Below, in pieces: positions 7,261 to 20,000 of a stretch of 20,000 bases of DNA; position 1 is the stretch's first letter; every line of letters begins with the position of its first letter. Made by a program: the position numbers and the translations under genes. Source of the stretch: an uncultured virus (IMG/VR IMGVR_UViG_3300031840_000567) (Duplodnaviria; Heunggongvirae; Uroviricota; Caudoviricetes). The notes under the pieces are model-generated. The model ran no database searches. It saw only the letters and a program-made list of their open reading frames with translations, and was not told the origin of the DNA. The stretch is taken from the IMG/VR virus record IMGVR_UViG_3300031840_000567, one strand, 5' to 3'.

Positions 7261-8904
7261 TTAGTAAATTATTCTAATATCTCCGCCGTTGGGAATAACT
7301 TCATACTTATCACCATTAACAGCGCGACCACCTTTACCGCCAGCAGCACCACCAAACGCATCTTGACCCCAAGTGCCTCCAGATCCTCCTGGTTGTCCCG
7401 GTTGTCCTGGTTGTCCCGGAGTGCCTGCATTTCCAGGTGTTCCTGGTTGTCCAGGCTGTCCGCTTGCACCTCTACCGCCTGGTGTCCCTGGTTGTCCGGG
7501 TTGACCTGATCCGCCTGGTTGTCCCGGAGTACCAGCACCACAAGATGCAGGAGTACCAGCACCACCGCCGAAGCCACCACCACCACCCTGGCCAGGGGTT
7601 CCGGGTTGACCTGATCCGCCGCTGCCGCCTGGTGTCCCTGATCCACCACCACCACCGGGTGTGCCAGGAATGCCGGGTGTGCCAGGTTGTCCAGTGATAT
7701 TGCCTGTTTTGTAGTTCCAACCGCGACCGGGAGCACCTACACCAAGTTGACCGCCACCGCCACCAGTGCCATTATAACCAGATGGACCACCAGCACCGCC
7801 GCCGCCACCTGATCCGCCAGCACCGCCCCATCCACGACCGCCGCCGTAGCCGCCGCCACCGCCGGATCCACCTTGACCGCCAGAACAGTGCTTTCTATTT
7901 CTTTCAGTGTTTCTTCTTCTTTCAGTCCTTCTATTCTGATAACCTTGCCTATCCTGTTTTGGCCCTCTTCTACTTCTTGGCCATCCACCATATCTTTTCC
8001 TTCTAGTCCTTCTATTTCTTTCACCTCTTCTATTCTGATAAGCTTGTCTTGCTTGATATGTTGATCTTTGCTGACCACCAGATCCAGGAGATCCAGGTTG
8101 ACCAGAGGCACCGGGTGATCCATTGCTACCATTACTACCACTACCACCAGGGCTACCGGGTGATCCAGGAGATCCAGAAGATGCACCACTACCGGGTGAT
8201 CCAGGAGATCCATCAACTCCAGTTTTTCCACCACCGCCACCGGCATAAATGCGAGCGTCTGATCCTTCGCACTCTACAAATACCTTACGGAGTGAAGGAG
8301 CTCCAGGATTAGATACTTGAACAGCATCACCGCCAGGTTGACCACCTAATGCACCACCAGCAGAATAAATGCCATAAGATGGTGGAGAATTGTTTACATA
8401 GATGTTGAGATTTGATGACGGATCATCAGCAATAACAGCAGGAGTTGCAACACTTGTACTAATAATCCTACCCTTTAACCTCAAATATTTTGTGATATTT
8501 CTATTAAGGTTACCACCCCAAGTTGCATCAACACTAGGAGTAGAGGGACTATTCAGATCAGTAACATTAAAGTTCTCTTCCTCTGAATTTGCTGCCTGTT
8601 CGACCACATACTCATCAATAATACCTCTAAGATCTTGAGGTGTAATAGCTCCAGTCGTACCAACGCCTACATTTTCAACTGCATCTAAAACATATGGTAA
8701 GTGTGGCGTTCCTGTAGAAGTAGCATATTTTCCCTGGTTAAAATCATATGGTGCATCAAGATCTGTAACTCGATGCATCTCAGATGCAGAGATTGAAGCA
8801 GAAGTATCACCTACTGCTGCCCTAACTTCGCCATATGATATTTGTGTGCCAGGTGTACCTGTCAGGAGTTGTTGAGTTTTTGTGCTCCAATCTCCGTAAG
8901 CCAT
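7261..8904 (-). CDS. Gly/Pro-rich distal tail-fibre adhesin, gp38-like, with G-X-P repeats and an Arg-rich insert
   Basis: IYSAGG..GG.PGGDAV...IYAGGGGG and the C-terminal GAAGGKGGRAVNG...GDIRIIY resemble T-even gp38 polyglycine adhesins; last gene of the fibre cluster. Confidence 0.7.
   Translation of the reverse strand: MAYGDWSTKTQQLLTGTPGTQISYGEVRAAVGDTSASISASEMHRVTDLDAPYDFNQGKYATSTGTPHLPYVLDAVENVGVGTTGAITPQDLRGIIDEYVVEQAANSEEENFNVTDLNSPSTPSVDATWGGNLNRNITKYLRLKGRIISTSVATPAVIADDPSSNLNIYVNNSPPSYGIYSAGGALGGQPGGDAVQVSNPGAPSLRKVFVECEGSDARIYAGGGGGKTGVDGSPGSPGSGASSGSPGSPGSPGGSGSNGSNGSPGASGQPGSPGSGGQQRSTYQARQAYQNRRGERNRRTRRKRYGGWPRSRRGPKQDRQGYQNRRTERRRNTERNRKHCSGGQGGSGGGGGYGGGRGWGGAGGSGGGGGAGGPSGYNGTGGGGGQLGVGAPGRGWNYKTGNITGQPGTPGIPGTPGGGGGSGTPGGSGGSGQPGTPGQGGGGGFGGGAGTPASCGAGTPGQPGGSGQPGQPGTPGGRGASGQPGQPGTPGNAGTPGQPGQPGQPGGSGGTWGQDAFGGAAGGKGGRAVNGDKYEVIPNGGDIRIIY
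7320..8245. repeat. GC-rich low-complexity coding repeats (9-bp units encoding GQP/GTP/GSP, and poly-Gly)
   Basis: Repeated CCTGGTTGT/CCCGGTTGT, GATCCAGGA and CCGCCA/CCACCA units within the 547-aa ORF. Confidence 0.9.
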
Positions 8905-8914
8905 ATATCAATCC

Positions 8915-11635
8915 CTAGGAAAGTGTAAATGTAACCGAACCAATACCAGCAACTGTGATATACACTTTAGTCGGATCGGATGCGTCCTGCTCAATATTTA
9001 GGGCTGAAGTTCCAGAAGACACAAAGGATCTGAAGATACTCGCATCAGTTGCACTGGAACCCTGTTGAGTTGCATATTGGTGCTTATTATATGCCTTGTT
9101 ATAGATCATATGTGCAGTACCAAATCCGGTAGCACTTACACCGAACTCAGATCCAGGTTGAACAAGATTGTCAACATTATTATTAATCTGAGTTGCTCTA
9201 TCAGCATCGTTTTCGACGATACCGCCAAGGTATCCAAGTTCCTCAAGATACGAGACAGGATCATGAGTTTCATTAATAACAGTCTTAATACCAACAGGAT
9301 TATTCAACCTATCTTCATAGAATAATTGGTTGACATTTGAATTAATATCAAACCACAAACATCCTGGTTGTGTACCATCTGGGGTAGAATCATTTTGTCT
9401 GGAAAGAATAATACTACCGCTAGATTCTCCTAGGTCAAGAGTAGAGTTTGGAAGTGCAGTATCAAATCCAACTCTAACTGGTCCACCATCAGTGCCACCA
9501 GTGCCTGTGTAATTGCTAAAGAATTTTGTGGTTTTATAAATTTCAACTGCATTACTGTCATTGAGACCAAATTTAGTACCAATGCCAACACCAGACTCAA
9601 AGAGAGCTTCTCCACCAATAAAGTCACCGCTAGGGCTTCTTCTTAATCCAACATAAAGATCTACATTAGAATCTCTCTTACCGGAAGTTGATCCAATACC
9701 AATACCAGCTTCACCAAGCATGGCAATCTCAGCATTATCAAATAATGCAATTCCTTCCTGAACAGGAATACCTGAGAGAGTAGTATTGAATCCGATTCTA
9801 GTAATCAGCAGGTTTGTCCCTGCACCATCAGTAATATCTAAGTTTGCAACTGTGGTAACACCTGCATTTGCAACCATAAATTGGCATTCAACACCTTCGG
9901 TAACTTGAAGACTGCCACATGTGACAAGACCACTATTGGCATTTAATGTAACAGCTCCAAAGGTGCAAATACCACCGCCAGTAAAGTTAAAAGTATTGTT
10001 GATGTTAATAACATCTGTATTGACAGTATTAGTTGTGATAATACCACTTAGATTAGCAAATACTGTACCAGATGCAGAAACTACTGTGGTTAGATCACCA
10101 AAGACTAAAGTATCTGTAAGAATTCTACATGTGCCACCGATATTGACTTGCTTGAATGATGCAGAATCTCCACCAGTTTGATTAATATCACCGGTAAATG
10201 TTGTGTCATCCAGAATTGCACTAGATCCTGGTACACAAGAGACAATGCCAAGTACAACTAACTCAGTAGCAGTAACATCACTAATATTTACAGATCCACC
10301 AAATGTACCACCGATTGAAAGATCGCCACCAACAGTTAAGTTACCAGCAAATGTGCCATCACCATCAATATCAGCATCACCCCTAACACCAAGACCTTTA
10401 CCAAGTGCAGAACTTGTTGTGCCCACACCCACGAAGTTGGATACAAGTATCTCACCACCAAATGTAGAAATACCAGTGTTTCTAATAAAGATGCTGTTAA
10501 TTCCAAGAGAATCAATCTGATCAACACTAATATCAGGTACACCAGTTAATCCTTGCGCCAAACCTGCGACACCAGTAATATCACCGATAACATCGCCAAT
10601 GAATCCACCAGCAGCACCAAGCGAACCGCTAAATGTACCTGTGCCGACCACATCGAGATCAAAATTGGGATCAACTCTAGATTTACCAATACCAATCTTA
10701 CCCTCACTAGTAACAACTACTCTAGGCTTATTCTTAATAGCATCTGGATCTAAATCATCTTGCCCCCAGAACTCGACTTGTCCAATAGGAGTATTACCTA
10801 CACCAGTTACGGCACCGTTGAAAAGAATTGCTTGTCTTGGAATAGCACCACTTGTTTCAATAAACCTGATGCCATGACGACTATCTGAGTTGGCTACGGT
10901 TCCAATGAAAGTAATACTATTCTCATCATTAGTAAATGTTAATCCACGATCAGTACCAATCATGGCACCTGATGACATATTTAATCCACTAAATGAACCA
11001 ATACCAGTCAGTTCAATGTTACCACTACCAGTGATAGTTTGAACACCAACAATATCACCAACCATGTTGATGTTACCTTGCTGGGCATTACCAGTAAGTG
11101 TAATGTTCTTTGCACTCAGCCCCTCAAATGTACCAACACCACTAATAGCATCAAGTTTAATAATATCACCAACAGCAAAATCTGCCTGTGGGAATGTTAC
11201 AGATACACCAACAGGTCTAAACGCATAGATTGTTGATCCTACTCCAGGATTATCATTATCCCATACAGATGTAGGAAGATTAATCAATCCAGATCCATCA
11301 CCTTCAAATTTAACAGCTGTTACAGTACCTGCGACTGATATTGTGACACCTGTTGTTCCTACACCAACCTGAAATTCTGCTTCAGGTACTGTTGTACCAA
11401 TTCCAACTGAATATCCTACAGCAACATTAATATTGCCATAATGTGTTTGATATCCAATTACATTGACATCTCTAAAATTAGCTTGATTTTCGACAATCAA
11501 GTTTCCACGAATGTCCAGCTGCTCTCTTGGAATGGTTGTGCCGATACCGACTAGACCATTATTGGAGATTAGATCATCTGCATCAACCTGAATGCCATCT
11601 CTGAAGTTGATAATTGTCTTGTAATTATTAGGCAT
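8915..11635 (-). CDS. Tail fibre / virion structural protein (906 aa)
   Basis: Many VGIGT/VGVGT repeats and Gly/Thr/Val/Ile-rich beta composition; sits between two other fibre genes and has a late promoter. Confidence 0.8.
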   Translation of the reverse strand: MPNNYKTIINFRDGIQVDADDLISNNGLVGIGTTIPREQLDIRGNLIVENQANFRDVNVIGYQTHYGNINVAVGYSVGIGTTVPEAEFQVGVGTTGVTISVAGTVTAVKFEGDGSGLINLPTSVWDNDNPGVGSTIYAFRPVGVSVTFPQADFAVGDIIKLDAISGVGTFEGLSAKNITLTGNAQQGNINMVGDIVGVQTITGSGNIELTGIGSFSGLNMSSGAMIGTDRGLTFTNDENSITFIGTVANSDSRHGIRFIETSGAIPRQAILFNGAVTGVGNTPIGQVEFWGQDDLDPDAIKNKPRVVVTSEGKIGIGKSRVDPNFDLDVVGTGTFSGSLGAAGGFIGDVIGDITGVAGLAQGLTGVPDISVDQIDSLGINSIFIRNTGISTFGGEILVSNFVGVGTTSSALGKGLGVRGDADIDGDGTFAGNLTVGGDLSIGGTFGGSVNISDVTATELVVLGIVSCVPGSSAILDDTTFTGDINQTGGDSASFKQVNIGGTCRILTDTLVFGDLTTVVSASGTVFANLSGIITTNTVNTDVININNTFNFTGGGICTFGAVTLNANSGLVTCGSLQVTEGVECQFMVANAGVTTVANLDITDGAGTNLLITRIGFNTTLSGIPVQEGIALFDNAEIAMLGEAGIGIGSTSGKRDSNVDLYVGLRRSPSGDFIGGEALFESGVGIGTKFGLNDSNAVEIYKTTKFFSNYTGTGGTDGGPVRVGFDTALPNSTLDLGESSGSIILSRQNDSTPDGTQPGCLWFDINSNVNQLFYEDRLNNPVGIKTVINETHDPVSYLEELGYLGGIVENDADRATQINNNVDNLVQPGSEFGVSATGFGTAHMIYNKAYNKHQYATQQGSSATDASIFRSFVSSGTSALNIEQDASDPTKVYITVAGIGSVTFTLS

Positions 11636-11662
11636 TATCTTTTAGTGGCAAGACCTTTTTAC

Positions 11663-14600
11663 TTATTTATCCTTTAGGTCATCGACTTGTGAACTTAGGT
11701 CTTTGACTGCTTCAATAAGAAGAGGAATTAGTTTGTTATAGTGGACACCTTTAGTGCCATCAGGTTTGGTAGATACTGCCTCAGGAAGAACTTTTTCAAC
11801 ATCTTGAGCGATAACGCCAACATCGTGACCCGTATAGCTCTTGTTACCTGCCTTCCAATCGTATTCAGTGCCACGAATCTGCAGAACCTTAGCGAGTGGA
11901 TCTTCAAGTGTGGAAACATTTTCCTTCATAGAAAGGTCGGAAGTCTGACCATAGAATGCAACAATATCATCACATACATGGAGAGGACCACCACAATATG
12001 TAAATCCAGCACCACTCATGTATACATCACCAGAGAATGTAGTAAAACCATTGAGGTTAACCTGTTTCTCAAATGTTACTGATGCAGTGTACTTAGTGTC
12101 AGTTGCAATAGCAACAGCAAATCCAGTTGCAGCATTAAGAACGAGATCACCAGATCCAGGAACTGTTGTAATTTCAGTCTTCTGAGTACCAACACCGACT
12201 AAGACATTGTTTAACTTAGCACCATTGGGGAACTCACCAGTAATTTCAATAGAACCACCAAGCTCTACAGTTCCACTTGTAATTAAATCATCGGTGAAGT
12301 TAACATCATTAGAGAATGTTACTGGACCATCAAACTGAGATAGGATATTCTGTTGAGGACCACCTTCAACAATGATTCTCTGTCTAACAATAACTTCATC
12401 AAATACAACAGAGTTAGTAGATGCAGACTCACCAGTTACAGTAGGAATAGGAATACCAAAGGATGATTCTTCACCACTAGAAGAGGAGATTCTCTTGTTA
12501 CCAATGTAGAAGTCACCTTCGTTATTCAGACCAGTATATACAATTGAACCAGCTGATCTTTCCTGTGCCTGAGATAGATACTCCTCATCATCAGTCAGTG
12601 TTCTGTTCTGTACTTGAGGAAGACCGGTTGAATAGTTACCGGGACCATATCCAAGATACTCAAATGTATGTCCAGATGCACGAAGAATAGAAGGACGACG
12701 CAACTCGATAGGCAATGGTGCAATCTTTCTAATCAAGGAACCAGAAAAATGTTCAGTGGGTAGAGTACCAAGTGAACCACGAATAACACGGAGACCATCA
12801 TTACCACCACCGATTAGACCTGCCTCAGATACTCTCATGATCTCAGCATCAATCTCAATATAGTCACCAAGTCTGAATCTTAGATCAGTACCAATACCAG
12901 CATTGGGGAGTTGCAGTCTTACCGTTGTTGTTGTATTGTCCAGTGCATCTTTAGTTACTGCATGTTCTCCATCATACAAATTAGTATATCTTGATCCAAT
13001 AGCTTCTGATAAAGGTACAGATTGGTTGTTTCCATCAAATGCAAATTTATATACTCTATGTCCAGCAACAAAGTTAATATCATTAACTGTTGTAGATGTA
13101 AATGTAGTGACACCTGCAACGGTATTAACAATAAACTCACCAACTTTATTACTACTGGTATCAACAACTTTGAACTTAGCTCCTCTTTTCAAACCATGTG
13201 GAACTGATGTAGTGATTGTGGTCAATCCAGTGGCAATATCAAATTGAGTAGATGCAATAGAGACGGATGGAGTAACTCTATAAGCATATTGACCTGCAAC
13301 AACAATAGGATCTCCAGATGTTACTGCGATAGCAATACTATTCTTATCAGGTACGCTGGTAATTCTGAATAGTCCGTCGCTAGTTGTGCCGATGCCAGTG
13401 ATATTTACAACATCACCGATACATGAAGAAATACCTGATGTTGGGACACCAATAGTAGAACCTGGGAAGGTATCAATAGTTAATGTTTCTCCACCAGAAT
13501 ATGCTGATCCAGGTGCAAATACCTCTAGATCAGTAATAGTGGTAGATCCAACACCAACTGTAACTGTAGCTGTAGCACCGTTCCAATCACTACCATCGAG
13601 TAACTTTACATTATATCTGGTAGTTGCAGCATATCCTGAGGAAGTGACCAAATTTTCATGAATCTTGAGTCCACTTAAGTCATGCTGATTTTCAAAAGTA
13701 ATTGTACAAATACCAGCAGAGGGACTGGTGACACTAGATACTGCGTAACCAACATTAAATGTTTTTAAAAACTTGTCAACTGTCTCTCTTGTTAATGAAT
13801 TTGTCAAATCATTAACATCAACTTTACCTAAAGGTGAGCGCCTTGCAAATGATTGTGCAGCAGGTGCGTTGATTAGAATATTGTCTCTATCTTGTTGGGG
13901 ATAGTAGTAAGTAACATTCTGTTCGTACTTCTTGGGAGTAAATTCCTGCGGTGGTGAATAATCAGCAGAAAGAAGTTCTAAGATATAAACACCGTCTTCT
14001 TGTCCAGTAAGATATGGCTCAACAACGGTACTACGATACAATGAGAAGTTTTTATTATTGTTATTGATTGAGAATCTAGGTAAGAATAGATTCCTAGTGT
14101 TACTGGTATCCACATGAGTACCAGTATTTCTCTCTACACCAGAGGTATCAGTTTTGGAATGATTGAACTGGTATCCATTAATCAAACCAGTTACAGCGAA
14201 ATACCCATTATATCCCTTATCGGCAAGTCCACCAGTGTTATTTGAATCTTGAACATTCTCTACAAAAACAATATCCCCAACTTCGACTTGATGAGGAAGC
14301 TCAGTCGTAACAGTAACAACACCACCAGTCTCACTAACACTAGAAATAAACTGATGATTTCTTCTGAAGTTATTATCCTCCAGAGTGATTGTAGTGGATG
14401 TAGGATCACTAGTCTTAGCAAATCCAGTGAGACTAGAGCTTTGAATGATGAAACCATTTACAGGGTCTCTAGAGTTCCCTGCCTCCTTAGGAATAACATA
14501 TCTTACTTTATATAATTTGTCTTCAATACTTCTCTTATCTTCAAATCTCTTGATAAAACCAATATTGGTTCCACTTCCATCTTCTAGGTTGATATTAGTT

Positions 14601-16897
14601 TGAATCTGAGGATAGATTGTATTACCATCCTCAACATGCAAGAACCACTGTTCTTGATTAATGTCCCATTGAATTGGGTGTCCAATTTCACCAGTCTGCT
14701 TATCAGATACTGTACTCTTAACTCTTAGATCTTGTCCACCATAGATTTCCAGAGCTACATTATTGATAGCGTTAGAGAATGTTGTAGCAATTTTAATCTC
14801 TGTAGGGGAATTTACAATGGCATAATAGATTTTATTGAACTGAAGACCTTCCGAAAGATCTCCACTATCACTAAAGATTCTGATCTTCTCACCAGTTACC
14901 AATCCAATGGCATCCGTTGTCAATGCAAAATTAGAATTTGGTACACTAAGTTTACTTTCCTTGCTACCTGTTTGATCTCCCAGAATAGCTGTCGCTACAC
15001 CGGTCAGAACATTTTCTGACATACGAACATCAGCATCATATTCTGTACCGCCAATGGAGACATACAATTTCTCGTTTTTATTAGCACCAATTCTGAAACC
15101 TTGGGAGAGTGCTAGAGGTGGTTCATCCTGACGATCAAAACCGAAAATGTATAAGTGACTAGACAGACCAACATTCTTAGTCTTACTTACATCTAACTGA
15201 TAGAAACTTACAGTATCAATTTTAGATGCTGATGTATCTACATGCTGAGGTGTGGTGATATGAGTGATATATCCTTGGTCATCTCTGGGGAATGCTTCAG
15301 GTCTAAATCCATCAGCAAGTAGAGCAAACTGACCGAAGTTAGAGTTAGAGTTCGTGATAGATGCGTCAGCACCACTTTCACCAACAAAATGAGCATTATA
15401 ACCAATAGCAAAAACAGAAACGACTTGAACAACGGCGTTTTCTGAGATCTTAATATGAGATTGTTCCCATCCTTGCCTATAAACTGCACCAGAGTCTAAA
15501 TGATAGACAGTAGTAGCATCTGTAGATGAAGATTCTGCTGCCAGTTGAGATCCAGAGACTTTCTGATATGTAATACCTTCATAAAGTCTTGACTGAGTAT
15601 TATACTTAACAAATGCACGGTCATCCTTCTGCAATGAAATGCCCGTGAATTGAGCCACAACCATTGAACGGAAACCAGTAGCTTTACTGCCATCCGTGTG
15701 CATACCGTTCATGCCATAAACAGAACGCAATGAGATGTTGAAGATATAAGGAGATGCACCAGTTACAGTATCAGATTCAATGGTAACAACAGCACTTGTA
15801 ATGTTAGATGGTGTCGCTGGTAGGTTATTGGGGAAGACGGAAAGAGAATATGTAAATGTTGTTGAGTTTACAACAGACTGAACAAGAGTAGAAATATTAT
15901 ACTGAGATACATTAACTCCACTGATTTTAATTGGAGTACCAGAACTGAGTCCATGTGCTTGTTCTGTGGTAACAGTAATCTGAGCTGTAGGATTTAATCC
16001 GTCACCAGAGATGATACTAGCAATTTCAAGAGGGTCAGTACCGAGAGCACCAACAATCTCATTTTCTTGGCGAACTGCTTCAAAGTCGCCCTGATTTTCA
16101 GGCCATTCGTATGAAATAGCACGACCAGATGCTTCTTGGAAAGCATATGTCAGCTTGTAATAATACATGCTGAGGTCAGTGATATCATAACCTTTGACAT
16201 CATTCTTACCATCAGCATACTCAAAGCATGTCAGTTTGTGGTGAGAAAATGTTGGGAAAGATCTATTATCATCAGTAAATTGTTGATGATCGGTAAATAC
16301 TAACCGGTCACCTACTCCATCAAACAGAGAGAACTGCCACATATAGCAGTTACCGGTAATTCTAAAGATGGCACTATTGGGAACATCATCATCTGTTGGG
16401 TTGGGGACATATAATGGTCTAATCTTAGTTTTACGAAGGTCAAGACCAACCAGAGATGTGCCCCTAGGGATAACAACACCACCATTGACCGAGTTGAATC
16501 TATAAAGCTGATTATTTTCTACAGTTAAGTCAAATTCACTTGTTAAAGATAATGCAAATTCAGTTGTTCCTAAAGTTTCTGCACCAATAGGAGACACGCC
16601 TACGGCTCTAGTTGGATCACTGGGATCTTTTTTAATGGCAAATCCAGGACGATTATCAATAAAGTGATCGCCAGGGAACAACAGAATCGTTGTTTTATCG
16701 GTAATATCGTTATCGAATCCAGTCTGATACGAGAATCTTGCTGATTCTAATAGTGCTCGCTGAATTGTCTTAAAGGGTTTCGTTAATGAGTTACCCTGGT
16801 TCGTGATGCTATCTGTAGCATCAAGATCGTTAGGGTTCACATAAAGAATCTTACCCTCAGTATTCTTGATGAAATTCTCTAACTTATTAAGTGGCAT
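11663..16897 (-). CDS. Large tail fibre/spike protein with C-terminal intramolecular chaperone (peptidase S74)
   Basis: N-terminal LYV...PFKTIQRAL beta-helix cap; repeated T.TT...HGL..G modules; C-terminal SDLSMKEN...GVIAQDVEKVLPEAV...V.Y..LIPLLIEAVK followed by a coiled coil. Confidence 0.88.
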   Translation of the reverse strand: MPLNKLENFIKNTEGKILYVNPNDLDATDSITNQGNSLTKPFKTIQRALLESARFSYQTGFDNDITDKTTILLFPGDHFIDNRPGFAIKKDPSDPTRAVGVSPIGAETLGTTEFALSLTSEFDLTVENNQLYRFNSVNGGVVIPRGTSLVGLDLRKTKIRPLYVPNPTDDDVPNSAIFRITGNCYMWQFSLFDGVGDRLVFTDHQQFTDDNRSFPTFSHHKLTCFEYADGKNDVKGYDITDLSMYYYKLTYAFQEASGRAISYEWPENQGDFEAVRQENEIVGALGTDPLEIASIISGDGLNPTAQITVTTEQAHGLSSGTPIKISGVNVSQYNISTLVQSVVNSTTFTYSLSVFPNNLPATPSNITSAVVTIESDTVTGASPYIFNISLRSVYGMNGMHTDGSKATGFRSMVVAQFTGISLQKDDRAFVKYNTQSRLYEGITYQKVSGSQLAAESSSTDATTVYHLDSGAVYRQGWEQSHIKISENAVVQVVSVFAIGYNAHFVGESGADASITNSNSNFGQFALLADGFRPEAFPRDDQGYITHITTPQHVDTSASKIDTVSFYQLDVSKTKNVGLSSHLYIFGFDRQDEPPLALSQGFRIGANKNEKLYVSIGGTEYDADVRMSENVLTGVATAILGDQTGSKESKLSVPNSNFALTTDAIGLVTGEKIRIFSDSGDLSEGLQFNKIYYAIVNSPTEIKIATTFSNAINNVALEIYGGQDLRVKSTVSDKQTGEIGHPIQWDINQEQWFLHVEDGNTIYPQIQTNINLEDGSGTNIGFIKRFEDKRSIEDKLYKVRYVIPKEAGNSRDPVNGFIIQSSSLTGFAKTSDPTSTTITLEDNNFRRNHQFISSVSETGGVVTVTTELPHQVEVGDIVFVENVQDSNNTGGLADKGYNGYFAVTGLINGYQFNHSKTDTSGVERNTGTHVDTSNTRNLFLPRFSINNNNKNFSLYRSTVVEPYLTGQEDGVYILELLSADYSPPQEFTPKKYEQNVTYYYPQQDRDNILINAPAAQSFARRSPLGKVDVNDLTNSLTRETVDKFLKTFNVGYAVSSVTSPSAGICTITFENQHDLSGLKIHENLVTSSGYAATTRYNVKLLDGSDWNGATATVTVGVGSTTITDLEVFAPGSAYSGGETLTIDTFPGSTIGVPTSGISSCIGDVVNITGIGTTSDGLFRITSVPDKNSIAIAVTSGDPIVVAGQYAYRVTPSVSIASTQFDIATGLTTITTSVPHGLKRGAKFKVVDTSSNKVGEFIVNTVAGVTTFTSTTVNDINFVAGHRVYKFAFDGNNQSVPLSEAIGSRYTNLYDGEHAVTKDALDNTTTTVRLQLPNAGIGTDLRFRLGDYIEIDAEIMRVSEAGLIGGGNDGLRVIRGSLGTLPTEHFSGSLIRKIAPLPIELRRPSILRASGHTFEYLGYGPGNYSTGLPQVQNRTLTDDEEYLSQAQERSAGSIVYTGLNNEGDFYIGNKRISSSSGEESSFGIPIPTVTGESASTNSVVFDEVIVRQRIIVEGGPQQNILSQFDGPVTFSNDVNFTDDLITSGTVELGGSIEITGEFPNGAKLNNVLVGVGTQKTEITTVPGSGDLVLNAATGFAVAIATDTKYTASVTFEKQVNLNGFTTFSGDVYMSGAGFTYCGGPLHVCDDIVAFYGQTSDLSMKENVSTLEDPLAKVLQIRGTEYDWKAGNKSYTGHDVGVIAQDVEKVLPEAVSTKPDGTKGVHYNKLIPLLIEAVKDLSSQVDDLKDK
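11664..11670 (-). promoter_or_regulatory. Late promoter ATAAATA upstream of the 906-aa fibre
   Basis: GATAAATAA on the minus strand overlapping the stop of the 1744-aa gene, 28 nt before ATG 11635. Confidence 0.6.
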
Positions 16898-16929: not shown

Positions 16930-16944
16930 TATTTAGACTAAATA
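16930..16944. promoter_or_regulatory. Back-to-back divergent late promoters (TATTTAG-A-CTAAATA)
   Basis: CTAAATA on the minus strand (16930-16936) faces the fibre gene; CTAAATA on the plus strand (16938-16944) faces the 16969-17748 gene. Confidence 0.75.
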
Positions 16945-16968
16945 TGATTGGTCTTGTTATGTTCTATT

Positions 16969-17748
16969 GTGGATATACATCCAATACGAATACAAGAGAT
17001 TAATATTCCCGAAGCACCAGCCTGGTTAACATCAGATCCACCGGTAGCATTGCCTATCTATCCTCCTGTAACCACACAGATAGGAATACCAATTGTCAAT
17101 ATGCCAGGATGTGTTGAGTCTCACAGAGATAGTAGTGAGAATCAAACTCTGAAGGATGAGGATAAGGATGGTGTTCAAGTATTCTGTGATGCAGGAACTC
17201 CTAGCTTTAATCCTATTGATTATGATCCAAACAAACTAGAAATAACAACAGAGTCTCCACCACCCCCACCTATCAAATCTCCAGAAACTAAAAAACCAGA
17301 GACACCAAAGGCAGAGACAAATACCCCACCACCGCCTGCAAAGGTAGAGTGTCCTAGTAGAGCACAAGAATTAAAAAACCCTGTAGGAAAAATCCTAGAG
17401 GGTAATAAAAAGATTACTAAGTATGAGACAGTGGGAAAAGAATGTCTCCCTGTATTTGAAAATTTAAATATACCTGATCAGATCGTCCAGAACATACCAT
17501 CACCAGGCTCTATAACTATTACCGCCTCAATTGCTGTAGTTGCGACGACCTCTGCGTTGCTCGCAAAACCTCTTGCTGATCTTTTGTTAAAAGTGGTGAA
17601 ACCTGTAACGAAGAAGGTTGTGAAGAAGATTGCTGCCTTACGGGGTAAGAAGTCCCCGGTATTGTCTGTGTCTGAGAGGAAGGCGGAGCAACGGGATCGG
17701 AACCGGGCGATAAAGATTTTACGGTCGGCACTGAAACCGAAGGGATAG
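16969..17748 (+). CDS. Pro-rich protein with a C-terminal membrane anchor and basic tail
   Basis: ORF track 16948..17748, with GTG 16969 as the likelier start. Two Cys pairs, a PPPPPIKSPETKKPETP linker, hydrophobic ITITASIAVVATTSALLA, then a Lys/Arg-rich tail. Confidence 0.8.
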   Translation: MDIHPIRIQEINIPEAPAWLTSDPPVALPIYPPVTTQIGIPIVNMPGCVESHRDSSENQTLKDEDKDGVQVFCDAGTPSFNPIDYDPNKLEITTESPPPPPIKSPETKKPETPKAETNTPPPPAKVECPSRAQELKNPVGKILEGNKKITKYETVGKECLPVFENLNIPDQIVQNIPSPGSITITASIAVVATTSALLAKPLADLLLKVVKPVTKKVVKKIAALRGKKSPVLSVSERKAEQRDRNRAIKILRSALKPKG

Positions 17749-18793
17749 AGTGGCGATGTTGTGGAACTGCATTGACATTCATCACTACAACATCAGCACA
17801 TATTTTTCTATAAGGGCTGCGTGGGTGAAAAGAAATTCCTGCCTTCATTAATTCTCCACAATTCTTCAAACGAGCAAGCTCAAAGTCCAATCTTTTATTG
17901 GCAAGTTGTTGTTTCATTAATGCAGTATTGGTATCTGCAGCTGCTTTACAACGCTCTTGTAATCCACCATCAAGTGGGAAAGAGAGTGTTGCAGATAAAC
18001 CAATACTGGTACTATAATTTCTAGTGTCACCAGTTCTTACTGGTTTATCCCACAACTTAGAACCGGGATTATCTGGAATACCATCACCTTGCATTTCCAT
18101 AACTGTGATAGTCATATCTTGACCATCTTCATATGCTCTTACTGTCTCACCATCTGAGTTTGTATATGTTTTATCATTGTAATGCGATTCCCAAGGCCAA
18201 TTCTTTACATTCTTTTGAACTTCTACTAGTCTTCCATCAAAATCTCTATTGTCATACTGAGGTTCATAGTAATGTGTCTCAAATGGATCCTTCTCATTAC
18301 GAGCATGAGTAATGAATGGTGTGATATTAGCAGTCGGTCCTTGACATGCGATACCACCACCATATTGGTTGGTTATATATGGTCCTTGTAAGACCTGAAT
18401 AGCTTGGTTGGTCACTGAGCCTGAGCTATTCGCGATTGGGTTTGCAGTTGCACTTACACCCCCTACATTGGCATGTGCAGGTGTTGTTAAGAATATTGCT
18501 GCTACTGCGTAAAGATACTTGTGGTGTCGGTGACGCTGGTAACCTCTGTGACTCTTTGAATTACTGTTTGATTTGACACTCCTGGTCCGCTGTAAGTTTG
18601 GGTGAACTGAAAAGCCTCTCCAGGAGTTGTTATCTGAAAATTCTGATTGGATAGATTTAGAGCCGAGTTGGTGCTCGTTATCTGCCCTTCCGTACCCCCT
18701 AAAGGATTGACGATTACAGAATTTGTTGTTGGTGTTGGACTTAATGATTGACCACCACTGTCCACATTCGTTCCACTTACTGAATACTGCCAT
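17519..18793 (-). CDS. Predicted exported/outer-membrane protein; true start uncertain (signal-like region 18520-18470, mature protein from ~18469)
   Basis: KYLYAVAAIFLTTPAHA|NVGG signal-like segment; amphipathic strand SIGLSATLSFPLDGG followed by a helical segment; Cys residues in the mature part. Confidence 0.7.
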   Translation of the reverse strand: MAVFSKWNECGQWWSIIKSNTNNKFCNRQSFRGYGRADNEHQLGSKSIQSEFSDNNSWRGFSVHPNLQRTRSVKSNSNSKSHRGYQRHRHHKYLYAVAAIFLTTPAHANVGGVSATANPIANSSGSVTNQAIQVLQGPYITNQYGGGIACQGPTANITPFITHARNEKDPFETHYYEPQYDNRDFDGRLVEVQKNVKNWPWESHYNDKTYTNSDGETVRAYEDGQDMTITVMEMQGDGIPDNPGSKLWDKPVRTGDTRNYSTSIGLSATLSFPLDGGLQERCKAAADTNTALMKQQLANKRLDFELARLKNCGELMKAGISFHPRSPYRKICADVVVMNVNAVPQHRHSIPSVSVPTVKSLSPGSDPVAPPSSQTQTIPGTSYPVRQQSSSQPSSLQVSPLLTKDQQEVLRATQRSSQLQQLRR

Positions 18794-18996
18794 CCTGTTG
18801 CATAATCTATAGAGTTAATAGTTTCAGTCACCTTCGATGTTGTCTCAGTGTGACTGGTCATTGAGCCCTGGGTGAAGTTTGGGACTACTGGAACTGCTTT
18901 TGCTTGCCCAGAAGACATCGCAATGAGAACAACAACGGCAAAAAGAGGTGCCTTTACAATTTGAGCAAAGACATCCCTTTTGATTAGGAAATCCAT
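18502..18996 (-). CDS. Secreted Ser/Thr-rich beta protein (164 aa)
   Basis: Hydrophobic N-terminus ending AKA|VPVVPNF; long alternating Thr/Ser/Val strands. Confidence 0.85.
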   Translation of the reverse strand: MDFLIKRDVFAQIVKAPLFAVVVLIAMSSGQAKAVPVVPNFTQGSMTSHTETTSKVTETINSIDYATGWQYSVSGTNVDSGGQSLSPTPTTNSVIVNPLGGTEGQITSTNSALNLSNQNFQITTPGEAFQFTQTYSGPGVSNQTVIQRVTEVTSVTDTTSIFTQ

Positions 18997-19008
18997 AACT
19001 AAGTTCCA

Positions 19009-19512
19009 TTAATCAATTACCGTAATTTCACTTACAAATTGACCAATTGCCGTACTGCCAGCTCCACCAGCCGTCACGGTTAGAGCACCCGAAGTACCTA
19101 CAGTACCTGCTAGAGTTCCAGCAACACCCGCAGTGTAAGAAGTTACACTAGAGAAATTAGGAACATCACCTACAGTAGGAGCAGCAGTTGGGATTGCATC
19201 GCCTTGAAGGTAAGAGGTACTAAAGGAGAATGCTTCTCCGTTTGTTGCCGAAAGTTGATTTGCTGAAATAGTGCCAGGAGAATATACCCCACTGGTGATT
19301 GTGCCACTTGAAAGCATACCAGCAGTTGTTCCATCTGAGGTGCCAACATTTGAACCAGAGACACTATACTGAGACCCTAATCTTGTTGCTGAACTTCTAG
19401 CAGCATCAACAGTTAGTTGGACACTAGAAGACATTTTATGAACTAATCCGCCAGCGTTTGCTACACTAGCGGTCATCAATAACATTCCAAAAGCTAGTAA
19501 AGCTTTCTTCAT
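19009..19512 (-). CDS. Secreted Ser/Thr/Gly-rich beta protein (167 aa)
   Basis: Classic signal peptide MKKALLAFGMLLMTASVANA| from ATG 19512; the longer start in the ORF track lies inside the tRNA. Confidence 0.85.
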   Translation of the reverse strand: MKKALLAFGMLLMTASVANAGGLVHKMSSSVQLTVDAARSSATRLGSQYSVSGSNVGTSDGTTAGMLSSGTITSGVYSPGTISANQLSATNGEAFSFSTSYLQGDAIPTAAPTVGDVPNFSSVTSYTAGVAGTLAGTVGTSGALTVTAGGAGSTAIGQFVSEITVID

Positions 19513-19521
19513 TTTTTTGAA

Positions 19522-19537
19522 TGTAGGTGAACCTACA
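19522..19537 (-). other. Short hairpin between the tRNA 3' end and the next ATG
   Basis: TGTAGG-TTCA-CCTACA, a perfect 6-bp stem. Confidence 0.5.
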
Positions 19538-19538
19538 A

Positions 19539-19545
19539 TATATAG
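19539..19545 (-). promoter_or_regulatory. Possible late promoter variant CTATATA
   Basis: One mismatch from CTAAATA, 26 nt upstream of ATG 19512; overlaps the tRNA 3' end. Confidence 0.4.
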
Positions 19546-19626
19546 GAGTAGAGAGACTTGAACTCTCACGACCATGAGGTCAACAGATTTTAAGTCTGGT
19601 GCGTCTACCTATTCCGCCACACTCCC
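19543..19626 (-). tRNA. trnL: tRNA-Leu (anticodon UAA), no intron, CCA not encoded
   Basis: GGGAGTG-TGGCGGAATAGGTAGACGC-ACCAGA-CTTAAAA-TCTGT, long variable arm GACC-TCAT-GGTC, GAGAG-TTCAAGT-CTCTC, TACTCCT-A. Confidence 0.95.
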
Positions 19627-19634
19627 AAACCAAT

Positions 19635-20000
19635 TCAAATGTCATAGTAAAAGTATTGCCGACCGTATCTAGGGACATCAGTTAACCAACCATTCTTGGT
19701 AATCAGTCCACTTTGACTAGAAGTTCTAAACTTATTAATCATAGTTTCATCTTCACCATCCCACTCCCATTGTGTGCATGCATCTACAGTTAGAATTGGA
19801 ATTCCACATGAATATGATGTCATATGAAGAAATCCGTTATGCCACATATCGAAGGGAATAAAAGATGGATCATCTTCAGAAACCTTTGCACCATTTGTAG
19901 CATGAAAAATAATTGATACTTCAGGAATATCAGAATATTCTGTGGTCAATGGCTTCCTACCTATTTCATGATATCCCCAAAAATCATTACATATCAAACT
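19635..20000 (-). CDS. Partial carbon-nitrogen hydrolase (nitrilase superfamily), C-terminal part
   Basis: Frame is open to the window edge (SLICNDFWG); LICxD nucleophile-Cys motif, then IIFH.TN and SG.I...G. Confidence 0.65.
   Translation of the reverse strand, partial: SLICNDFWGYHEIGRKPLTTEYSDIPEVSIIFHATNGAKVSEDDPSFIPFDMWHNGFLHMTSYSCGIPILTVDACTQWEWDGEDETMINKFRTSSQSGLITKNGWLTDVPRYGRQYFYYDI

Follow-up and report, generated by a model that had tools for sequence, protein, structure and literature searches.

The final 20 kb of a 131-kb uncultured virus record (IMG/VR IMGVR_UViG_3300031840_000567; the window hereafter, meaning the whole 20,000-nucleotide stretch that was analyzed) contains T4-like cyanophage genes and, among them, a cassette of four genes, termed here A, B, C, and D, that on balance probably constitutes a late lysis module, standing in the place of the endolysin and breaching the host envelope late in infection. 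The cassette likely performs the job of an endolysin because, in one genomic slot of related phages, it has been exchanged repeatedly with three families of lytic enzymes. A first-pass annotation of the window had predicted the four open reading frames (ORFs), whose existence is borne out by the ORF list, and had offered a secretion channel with a surface fiber, a superinfection-exclusion device, or a non-canonical spanin or lysis system as possible roles. Of these options, lysis has gained strong comparative support, as a substitute for the endolysin more than as a spanin.

The exchange is best seen upstream of the small terminase gene. Phage P60 has no cassette, and a gene annotated as an endolysin occupies the corresponding position. 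The P60 small terminase, which is blind to both cassette and lysin, served as bait, and in the best 80 of 361 viral loci the slot contains the cassette in 33 cases and a lysin-like gene in 31; no locus combines the two, 5 lack both, and 11 are too short. Three unrelated kinds of gene are represented among the lysin-like ones, GH19-like (homologs of P60 gp37), GH73 (PF01832), and C39-like (PF13529), and their occurrence in one place marks the slot as a lysis slot. P60 gp37 itself has no Pfam match, and its phage matches are annotated as endolysin, lysozyme, or lysin A; 24 of the 31 lysin-like genes were scanned with Pfam, and the others were assigned by their resemblance to P60 gp37, in some cases via a shared N-terminal module only. 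On a tree of 64 loci with three markers, the distribution of the cassette needs four changes, at least three of which are forced by strong branches. The holin-endolysin cassettes of P60 and S-CBP42 thus resemble the present one in slot and in flanking small genes, but there the slot is filled by one enzyme, whereas the cassette supplies several exported proteins without a hydrolase domain. Searches of Pfam, PHROG, and NCBIfam found no peptidoglycan-hydrolase domain in A–D or in X, a small DUF6450 membrane protein that accompanies them in some phages, and the NCBIfam search of A–D gave no matches of any kind. The podovirus lysins (L265-L327, before the small-terminase block) have in common an N-terminal module of ~45 residues fused to GH19-like, GH73, or C39-like domains. 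Two small slot genes persist with either cassette or lysin, one of the phrog_2738 or P60 gp39 type and the other encoding a hydrophobic-plus-coiled-coil protein (L003:2778-2939; L096:59-241 and 1752-2000; P60 gp38/gp39), and these are holin or spanin candidates.

The same pattern extends to whole genomes. In a sample of 41 whole records (26 with B and 15 without), searched for six lysin families (GH19-like, GH73, C39, GH24, Amidase_2, and M15_3), a stand-alone lysin was present in 14 of the 15 cassette-less genomes versus 3 of the 26 that bear the cassette, and 21 of the latter have no detected lysin domain at all. Among myoviruses, B23, S-B68, S-N03, and S-PM2 have lysins without the cassette, and Syn9, P-SSM2, S-TIM5, and S-SCSM2R have the cassette without a lysin.

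Several points weigh against a lysis module in the endolysin's place. The tree from which the four changes were counted was made by a quick method from 270 columns. The lysin search left out GH108, SLT, M23, Amidase_3, and M15_4 and missed one known C39 gene (in G008), and the Fisher P of 2.6e-7 for the whole-record comparison overstates the association, as six of the 15 cassette-less genomes were chosen by their lysin and eight more by slot content. Three genomes (DSL-LC02, G012, and G019) combine the cassette with a stand-alone lysin, and two others (G021 and G023) combine it with lysin domains in ORFs of 827 and 935 amino acids. Syn5 has neither cassette nor lysin, its lysis being unexplained, as do the five slot loci in which neither was found. 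In the window's own 131-kb record (782 ORFs), no GH19-like, GH73, C39, or GH24 match was found, and this record is probably partial. A shared slot could also reflect a difference in host envelopes that favors different gene sets. Fold matches for the cassette proteins are all non-significant, on models with predicted template modeling scores (pTM) of 0.34 for C and 0.43 for B, and chromosomal homologs of B, described below, are presumably non-lytic for their own cells, such that B alone would not be lytic. Finally, A has no signal peptide, leaving the export route of its N-domain unexplained.

Inheritance of the genes together is well supported. Of 50,697 phage records searched by tblastn, 402 contain A, 418 B, 407 C, and 405 D, all of them cyanophages or uncultured marine records, and T4-like phages, S-TIM5, and one podovirus share the order D>C>B><A, which is the outcome of the proposed check of co-occurrence and synteny. 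In the accessible part of a survey of 16 cyanomyophages, the labels T4-GC234, 235, 236, and 237 cover 15, 15, 12, and 15 proteins, respectively (PMC3037559); S-PM2 lacks B and C. In the T7-like phages P-SSP7, S-SBP1, and SS120-1, A, X, C, and B all point the same way and are flanked by the tail fiber and small terminase genes, and C is also found in S-RIP1/2 and S-TIP37. T7-type loci have A in 79 of 88 cases and D in none. The convergent four-gene module of the first-pass annotation is therefore co-inherited but not a closed set, since podoviruses use A, C, and B with X and without D. In the genome of the window, X lies about 60 kb away (G000:67139-67451). More membrane-type genes stand upstream of A in Syn9 (gp161-163; L001:7367-8554), of which only gp161, corresponding to X, occurs in the window's own record. 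Rearrangements were also seen: B is separated from C in L202 and L251, the orientation of A is reversed in L047, L053, and L234, and additional sequence of several hundred to 2,200 bases parts B from A in L088, L046, L050, L052, L056, and L057.

P-SSP7 genes 29-51, including gp42-45, are late according to the accessible part of the source (PMC7885011). T4-GC234-237 are missing from the published virion table, as far as that source is accessible, although small exported proteins may have escaped detection there (Table S8; PMC3037559); this agrees with the earlier expectation that the proteins are not virion components. An envelope module fits the co-inheritance of the genes, their envelope-targeting features, the late expression seen in a relative, and the lack of the proteins in published virion proteomes. 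An additional cyanophage virion proteome comprises, in its accessible part, 23 proteins, one of them unnamed (PMC12801897).

The sequence of A agrees with its earlier description as a Pro-rich, Cys-bearing protein with one C-terminal hydrophobic segment and a basic tail. Pro makes up 17% of residues 1-185, the N-domain is acidic, there are four Cys, and the single hydrophobic segment is Ala/Thr-rich and spans residues 181-199 (about 17509-17565), preceded by a net charge of -9 and followed by one of +15. In 116 of 131 loci, A and B run into each other at their 3′ ends, with a median of 119 nt shared, and this convergent overlap is treated as incidental because its length varies widely and the tail of B is unconserved. 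That C and D are secreted, as first proposed, is supported by basic-hydrophobic-AxA leaders with 11-residue hydropathy maxima of 2.9 and 2.2, respectively. C consists of its leader and a Ser/Thr-rich protein, and D of a leader and a Gly/Ser/Thr-rich region; the two are weak paralogs (hhalign, 85.9%, E 5e-6). The label “OMP1 protein” attached to D in some records was set aside, as a literature search traced no basis for it, and in the ESM Atlas D returned DUF6322 viral clusters alone, without structures.

A model of mature C built from 60 sequences (predicted local distance difference test [pLDDT] 71, with the pTM given above) has two beta strands of ~23 residues each, at 10-32 and 105-128, and a small beta region; the two strands are read as one long hairpin. 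Its best Foldseek rows are podovirus tail tubes (E 0.014 and 0.016), its other weak neighbors are pore stems, and a wide structural search reached at best Z 4.2 over 52 residues at a root-mean-square deviation of 5.5; at the level of the model, these weak rows show just a shared long hairpin. The core of B comprises 140-250 amino acids with one helix block. The B model, made for the L084 homolog from 126 sequences (pLDDT 75), contains hairpins at 47-73 and 90-115 followed by a 42-residue helix at 120-161, with four invariant Cys, in keeping with the beta-strand and helical segment first noticed in B. Foldseek found nothing at E 0.001 or better with the C and B models, and searches of PDB sequences with the B and C profiles found nothing relevant.

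The start of B differs from the one first given. It had been placed near ~18520, where no ATG, GTG, or TTG occurs in the B frame. The frame is instead open from an ATG at 18793, inside C and in its -1 frame, giving 424 codons, and translation from this ATG is likely, judged from the sequence. This codon takes its first base from the third position of a Gly codon and its TG from a Trp codon, both belonging to C, and a 92-residue polar, basic leader precedes the signal-like segment. The layout was surveyed in 244 loci with both genes, 14 of which were left out for an incomplete C. B lies in the -1 frame with its start codon at or before the C stop in 227 of the remaining 230; the exceptions are L202 and L251, in which B is further downstream, and P-SCSP1u. 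Among 209 distinct C sequences, the B start is ATG in 208 and GTG in one, and all but one are placed on a C Trp codon. The distance from B start to C stop is 285-321 nt in 63 (the window type), 162-174 nt in 69, ~189 nt in 72, and 108, 60, or 0 nt in 5, with clades differing such that the start occupies four different alignment positions. Synonymous codon usage would lead one to expect 488, 229, and 411 stops in the stretches of 285-321, 162-174, and ~189 nt; that these hold none follows from their definition, and what counts as the test is the presence of an open stretch of this kind in nearly every locus. The median chance per locus of remaining open is 3e-5, 0.016, and 8e-4 for the three classes, although the loci are related by descent and these probabilities are not independent trials. 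An A before TGG is expected from synonymous usage just 20-32% of the time.

Shine-Dalgarno-like motifs (GGAGTGA and GGTGGTG) lie upstream of the B start in two clades, with none clear in the clade of the window. Some distant B homologs begin with a plain signal peptide, and the leader is therefore dispensable; it may be a by-product of the initiation site, perhaps one that lowers the dose of B. Two other routes to B were considered. A programmed -1 frameshift from C into B is less likely, given that ATG positions shift between clades, a start codon is present in 209 of 209, Shine-Dalgarno-like motifs occur, one podovirus joins B to C by a plain ATGA overlap, and inspection by eye found no slippery heptamer at the junction; moreover, the open frame starts only a few codons before the ATG. 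A non-canonical start at the C stop codon was rejected, since in many loci the leader would then be just 12 residues long. Public records annotate the start inconsistently, using the internal ATG in Syn9 and a late GTG in P-SSM2, and leaving the gene uncalled in S-SCSM2R (L261, 3501-4178), where B is present and its absence from the annotation is probably due to the hidden start.

Promoter-like motifs of the kind first noted are present on both sides of the cassette, conserved before D but not before A. Cyanophages use shortened variants of the T4 late consensus. TAAATA or TATATA precedes D in 117 of 121 distinct loci (a reverse-strand TAAATA control gave 62 of 121), but precedes A in only 15 of 147 relatives, and a conserved promoter before A was rejected on this count. 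The full T4 late consensus is given as TATAAAT in the accessible text (PMC3037559). Opposite the CTAAATA at 16938 (+), a second copy at 16936 (-) faces the 1744-amino-acid tail-fiber gene, and the two form a divergent promoter-like pair.

A source for the cassette can be sought in the hosts. The B profile was run against 301 genomes, sampled within the family to which a Prochlorococcus single-cell genome belongs, and matched 11, of which two strong cases (G024 and G097) carry the phage cassette and nine are weak (E 3.5e-8 to 7e-4; eight loci inspected). An initial scan of contigs had found C matches in only 10, those inspected being phage-like, and the host homologs surfaced with a deeper B profile. 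These have ordinary signal peptides and no long overlap was seen; their neighbors are ndk, a PALP-family enzyme, an aldolase or a LuxR-type regulator, and secreted Ser/Thr-rich proteins, some of which end in similar S-V-F-like motifs. A profile of seven host B proteins matched only B ORFs among 11,399 phage-locus ORFs, with 179 hits, 87 of them at E <0.001 for a million-sequence database, although the window's own B reached only E 0.39; compared directly, host and phage profiles align at 96.5% in hhalign and have a common Cys pattern. In the ESM Atlas, one host B groups with unnamed viral and cyanobacterial clusters, without structures. The host neighbors resemble C only weakly, with hmmsearch E 1e-4 to 1e-3 in L350 and no more than 13% in hhalign, and no match to A or X was found beside host B homologs. 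Clusters of secreted Ser/Thr-rich proteins surround host B at L350:210-4510, L351:3515-7867, L354:1937-6541, and L355:1800-4750 and belong to no Pfam family; in L351, L353, and L355 a Cys-rich secreted protein follows B, and at L353:2406-4456 B is split by a DDE transposase. The picocyanobacterial operons (L350-L357) therefore share with the cassette the B core, its Cys pattern, and secreted Ser/Thr-rich neighbors and differ in having no A or X and in their non-phage surroundings. The chromosomal homologs suggest an unnamed cyanobacterial export system.

One alternative is that the cassette is a borrowed secretion channel with a surface fiber, in which B, as the host operons may do, would place C and D on the outside of the infected cell for aggregation, as decoys, or for shielding against grazers or superinfection, lysis being left to something else. 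The chromosomal setting just described speaks for this, as does a layout of two paralogous subunits and one probably low-copy beta-hairpin/helix protein, and the channel-and-fiber option is indeed supported with respect to the origin of the module. A curli or TolC identity is not. Curli (CsgA/CsgG), as generally described, are alike in having secreted beta-rich subunits, but C models as two long strands rather than a solenoid, neither C nor D has a curlin Pfam match, and B has no lipobox. TolC-type OEP proteins resemble B in having a beta strand followed by a long helix, and TolC appears in the Foldseek results of the B monomer model, only at E 3.6-5.3 and TMq 0.13-0.17; membership was rejected for want of the two OEP repeats, no PF02321 match being found in 126 B sequences at E 0.01. 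Two things in particular remain unexplained by a fiber, namely the repeated replacement of endolysin by cassette in one slot and the lysis of the cassette genomes in which no lysin domain was detected; with A and X missing beside host B and host neighbors that scarcely match C, this interpretation is rather unlikely.

A second possibility is a non-canonical spanin, in which A, as a type I inner-membrane protein, and B, as an outer-membrane protein (OMP), aided by C and D, remove the outer membrane only, with peptidoglycan cut by an undetected phage enzyme or a host hydrolase. Such a topology was foreseen in a spanin survey, the accessible part of which allows that spanin function might be served by a type I inner-membrane protein paired with an OMP, lists 20 of 91 spanin-less phages as infecting Prochlorococcus or Synechococcus, and adds that the outer membrane of these hosts may simply be fragile (PMC6139136). 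Like the spanins lambda Rz/Rz1, T7 gp18.5/18.7, and T1 gp11, the cassette encodes envelope proteins at a lysis locus, with an out-of-frame overlap and a Pro-rich partner with paired Cys, and three genomes hold both cassette and stand-alone lysin. It differs in lacking a lipoprotein and an N-terminally anchored coiled-coil i-spanin, in its extra secreted beta proteins, and in being mostly without endolysin, whereas spanins work with endolysins; the cassette is absent from most endolysin-bearing phages. The o-spanin lipobox [LVI][ASTVI][GAS]C (consensus from the accessible part of PMC6139136) is absent from A–D, including the window's B, and was found in 2 of 227 B signal regions. A has its hydrophobic segment at the C-terminus, followed by the +15 tail, which is not the type II topology of an i-spanin, and with neither lipobox nor signal it does not have the makeup of a unimolecular spanin. 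The overlap of B and C at the T7-type locus is spanin-like in being out of frame, but both products look exported rather than forming an inner/outer pair. The same list, as far as accessible, also holds P60, Syn5, and S-PM2 (PMC6139136), which are without the cassette, and the cassette is thus no universal spanin substitute. Membership among the spanins fails on lipobox and i-spanin topology, and a spanin role is considered unlikely.

A cassette whose periplasmic or outer-membrane products exclude superinfecting phages or mask receptors would accord with the envelope-targeting features and with restriction to the phages of one host group, but late timing in P-SSP7 and high conservation across myo- and podoviruses fit it poorly and the exchange with endolysins is left unexplained, making it quite improbable. 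That the products are ordinary virion or tail-assembly proteins, as might be thought from the tail-fiber genes that precede the cassette here and from the tail-tube rows of C, is more improbable still in view of the cleavable-leader features of B, C, and D, their absence from the accessible virion table (Table S8; PMC3037559), the position of the cassette far from tail genes in Syn9, P-SSM2, and S-H68, and its presence in both contractile-long-tail and short-tail phages.

If the cassette is a lysis module in the endolysin's place, a mechanism can be outlined. C and D would be exported, and their long beta strands would stack into a tube or fiber. B, for which the internal start would mean a lower yield, would form an oligomeric seed or pore whose beta hairpins enter the outer membrane, and A, through its C-terminal anchor, would with X tie the assembly to the inner membrane. 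The assembly would then push through or tear the wall and outer membrane non-enzymatically. B, and perhaps C and D, may derive from a host secretion or fiber operon, with A and X added by phages. The fuller proposal, that the most abundant marine cyanophages, both T4-like and T7-like, exit without an endolysin by means of a self-assembling beta-tube, which would be converted from a cyanobacterial secretion or fiber system, have its anchor in the inner membrane, and punch mechanically through wall and outer membrane, its outer-membrane seed metered by the start hidden in the subunit gene, is tentative and regarded as possible rather than probable. The role of the cassette matches no described lysis system on the features tested, and the genes have long been listed as hypothetical, which is the only description of T4-GC234-237, Syn9 gp164-167, and P-SSP7 gp42/44/45 in the accessible sources. 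Virus-associated pyramids of the archaeal viruses STIV and SIRV2 provide enzyme-free structural egress by one small membrane protein from an S-layer host, and may be a functional analog of the cassette, no sequence relation being implied. A literature search, with most subscription papers outside its reach, found no paper that gives A–D a function, and a study of phage OMPs covers the cyanophage family DUF680 and makes no mention of the A–D families in its accessible part (bioRxiv 10.64898/2026.10.24.761521).

The features of the cassette are collected in Table 1. The gene order in the window runs from tail-fiber genes (8915-16897) through the cassette to a tRNA-Leu gene. The tail genes encode a 906-amino-acid tail protein (8915-11635, -) and a 1744-amino-acid tail-fiber protein with a C-terminal S74 chaperone domain (11663-16897, -). 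Beyond these, at 7261-8904 (-), a 547-amino-acid protein without PHROG match has Gly-rich collagen-like repeats around a very Arg-rich segment (RRRTRRKR-type), and the ORF at 19635-19997 (-) corresponds to the C-terminal half of phrog_36475 and probably runs past the end of the record.

Table 1. Positions of the cassette genes and associated features in the window.
Feature	Position	Strand	Remarks
Gene A	16969..17748	+	phrog_570, T4-GC234, Syn9 gp164, P-SSP7 gp42-like
Gene B, full ORF, 424 codons (likely start)	17519..18793	-	phrog_848/1755, T4-GC235, Syn9 gp165, P-SSP7 gp45
Gene C	18502..18996	-	DUF6322/PF19847, phrog_650, T4-GC236, Syn9 gp166, P-SSP7 gp44
Gene D	19009..19512	-	phrog_564, T4-GC237, Syn9 gp167; “OMP1 protein” in some records
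Dual-coding stretch, 292 nt, B leader in -1 frame of C	18502..18793	-	
B signal-peptide-like hydrophobic segment, AHA/N site, no lipobox	18470..18517	-	sequence inspection
B conserved mature core: beta hairpins, variable Asp-rich loop, long helix, four invariant Cys	17741..18469	-	
A/B convergent 3′-end overlap, 230 nt; B part is an unconserved low-complexity tail	17519..17748		
CTAAATA, late-promoter-like motif before A	16938..16944	+	
CTATATA, late-promoter-like motif before D-C-B	19539..19545	-	overlaps tRNA-Leu 3′ end
tRNA-Leu(UAA)	19542-19627	-	directly upstream of D

An engineering method for T7-like cyanophages has reportedly been published. The cassette, which changes places with three types of endolysin, names four or five specific genes by which phages of Prochlorococcus and Synechococcus may lyse their hosts. 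If the proposed role is true, these tailed phages would follow a lysis route unlike that of holin, endolysin, and spanin, in one of the largest mortality processes of the ocean.

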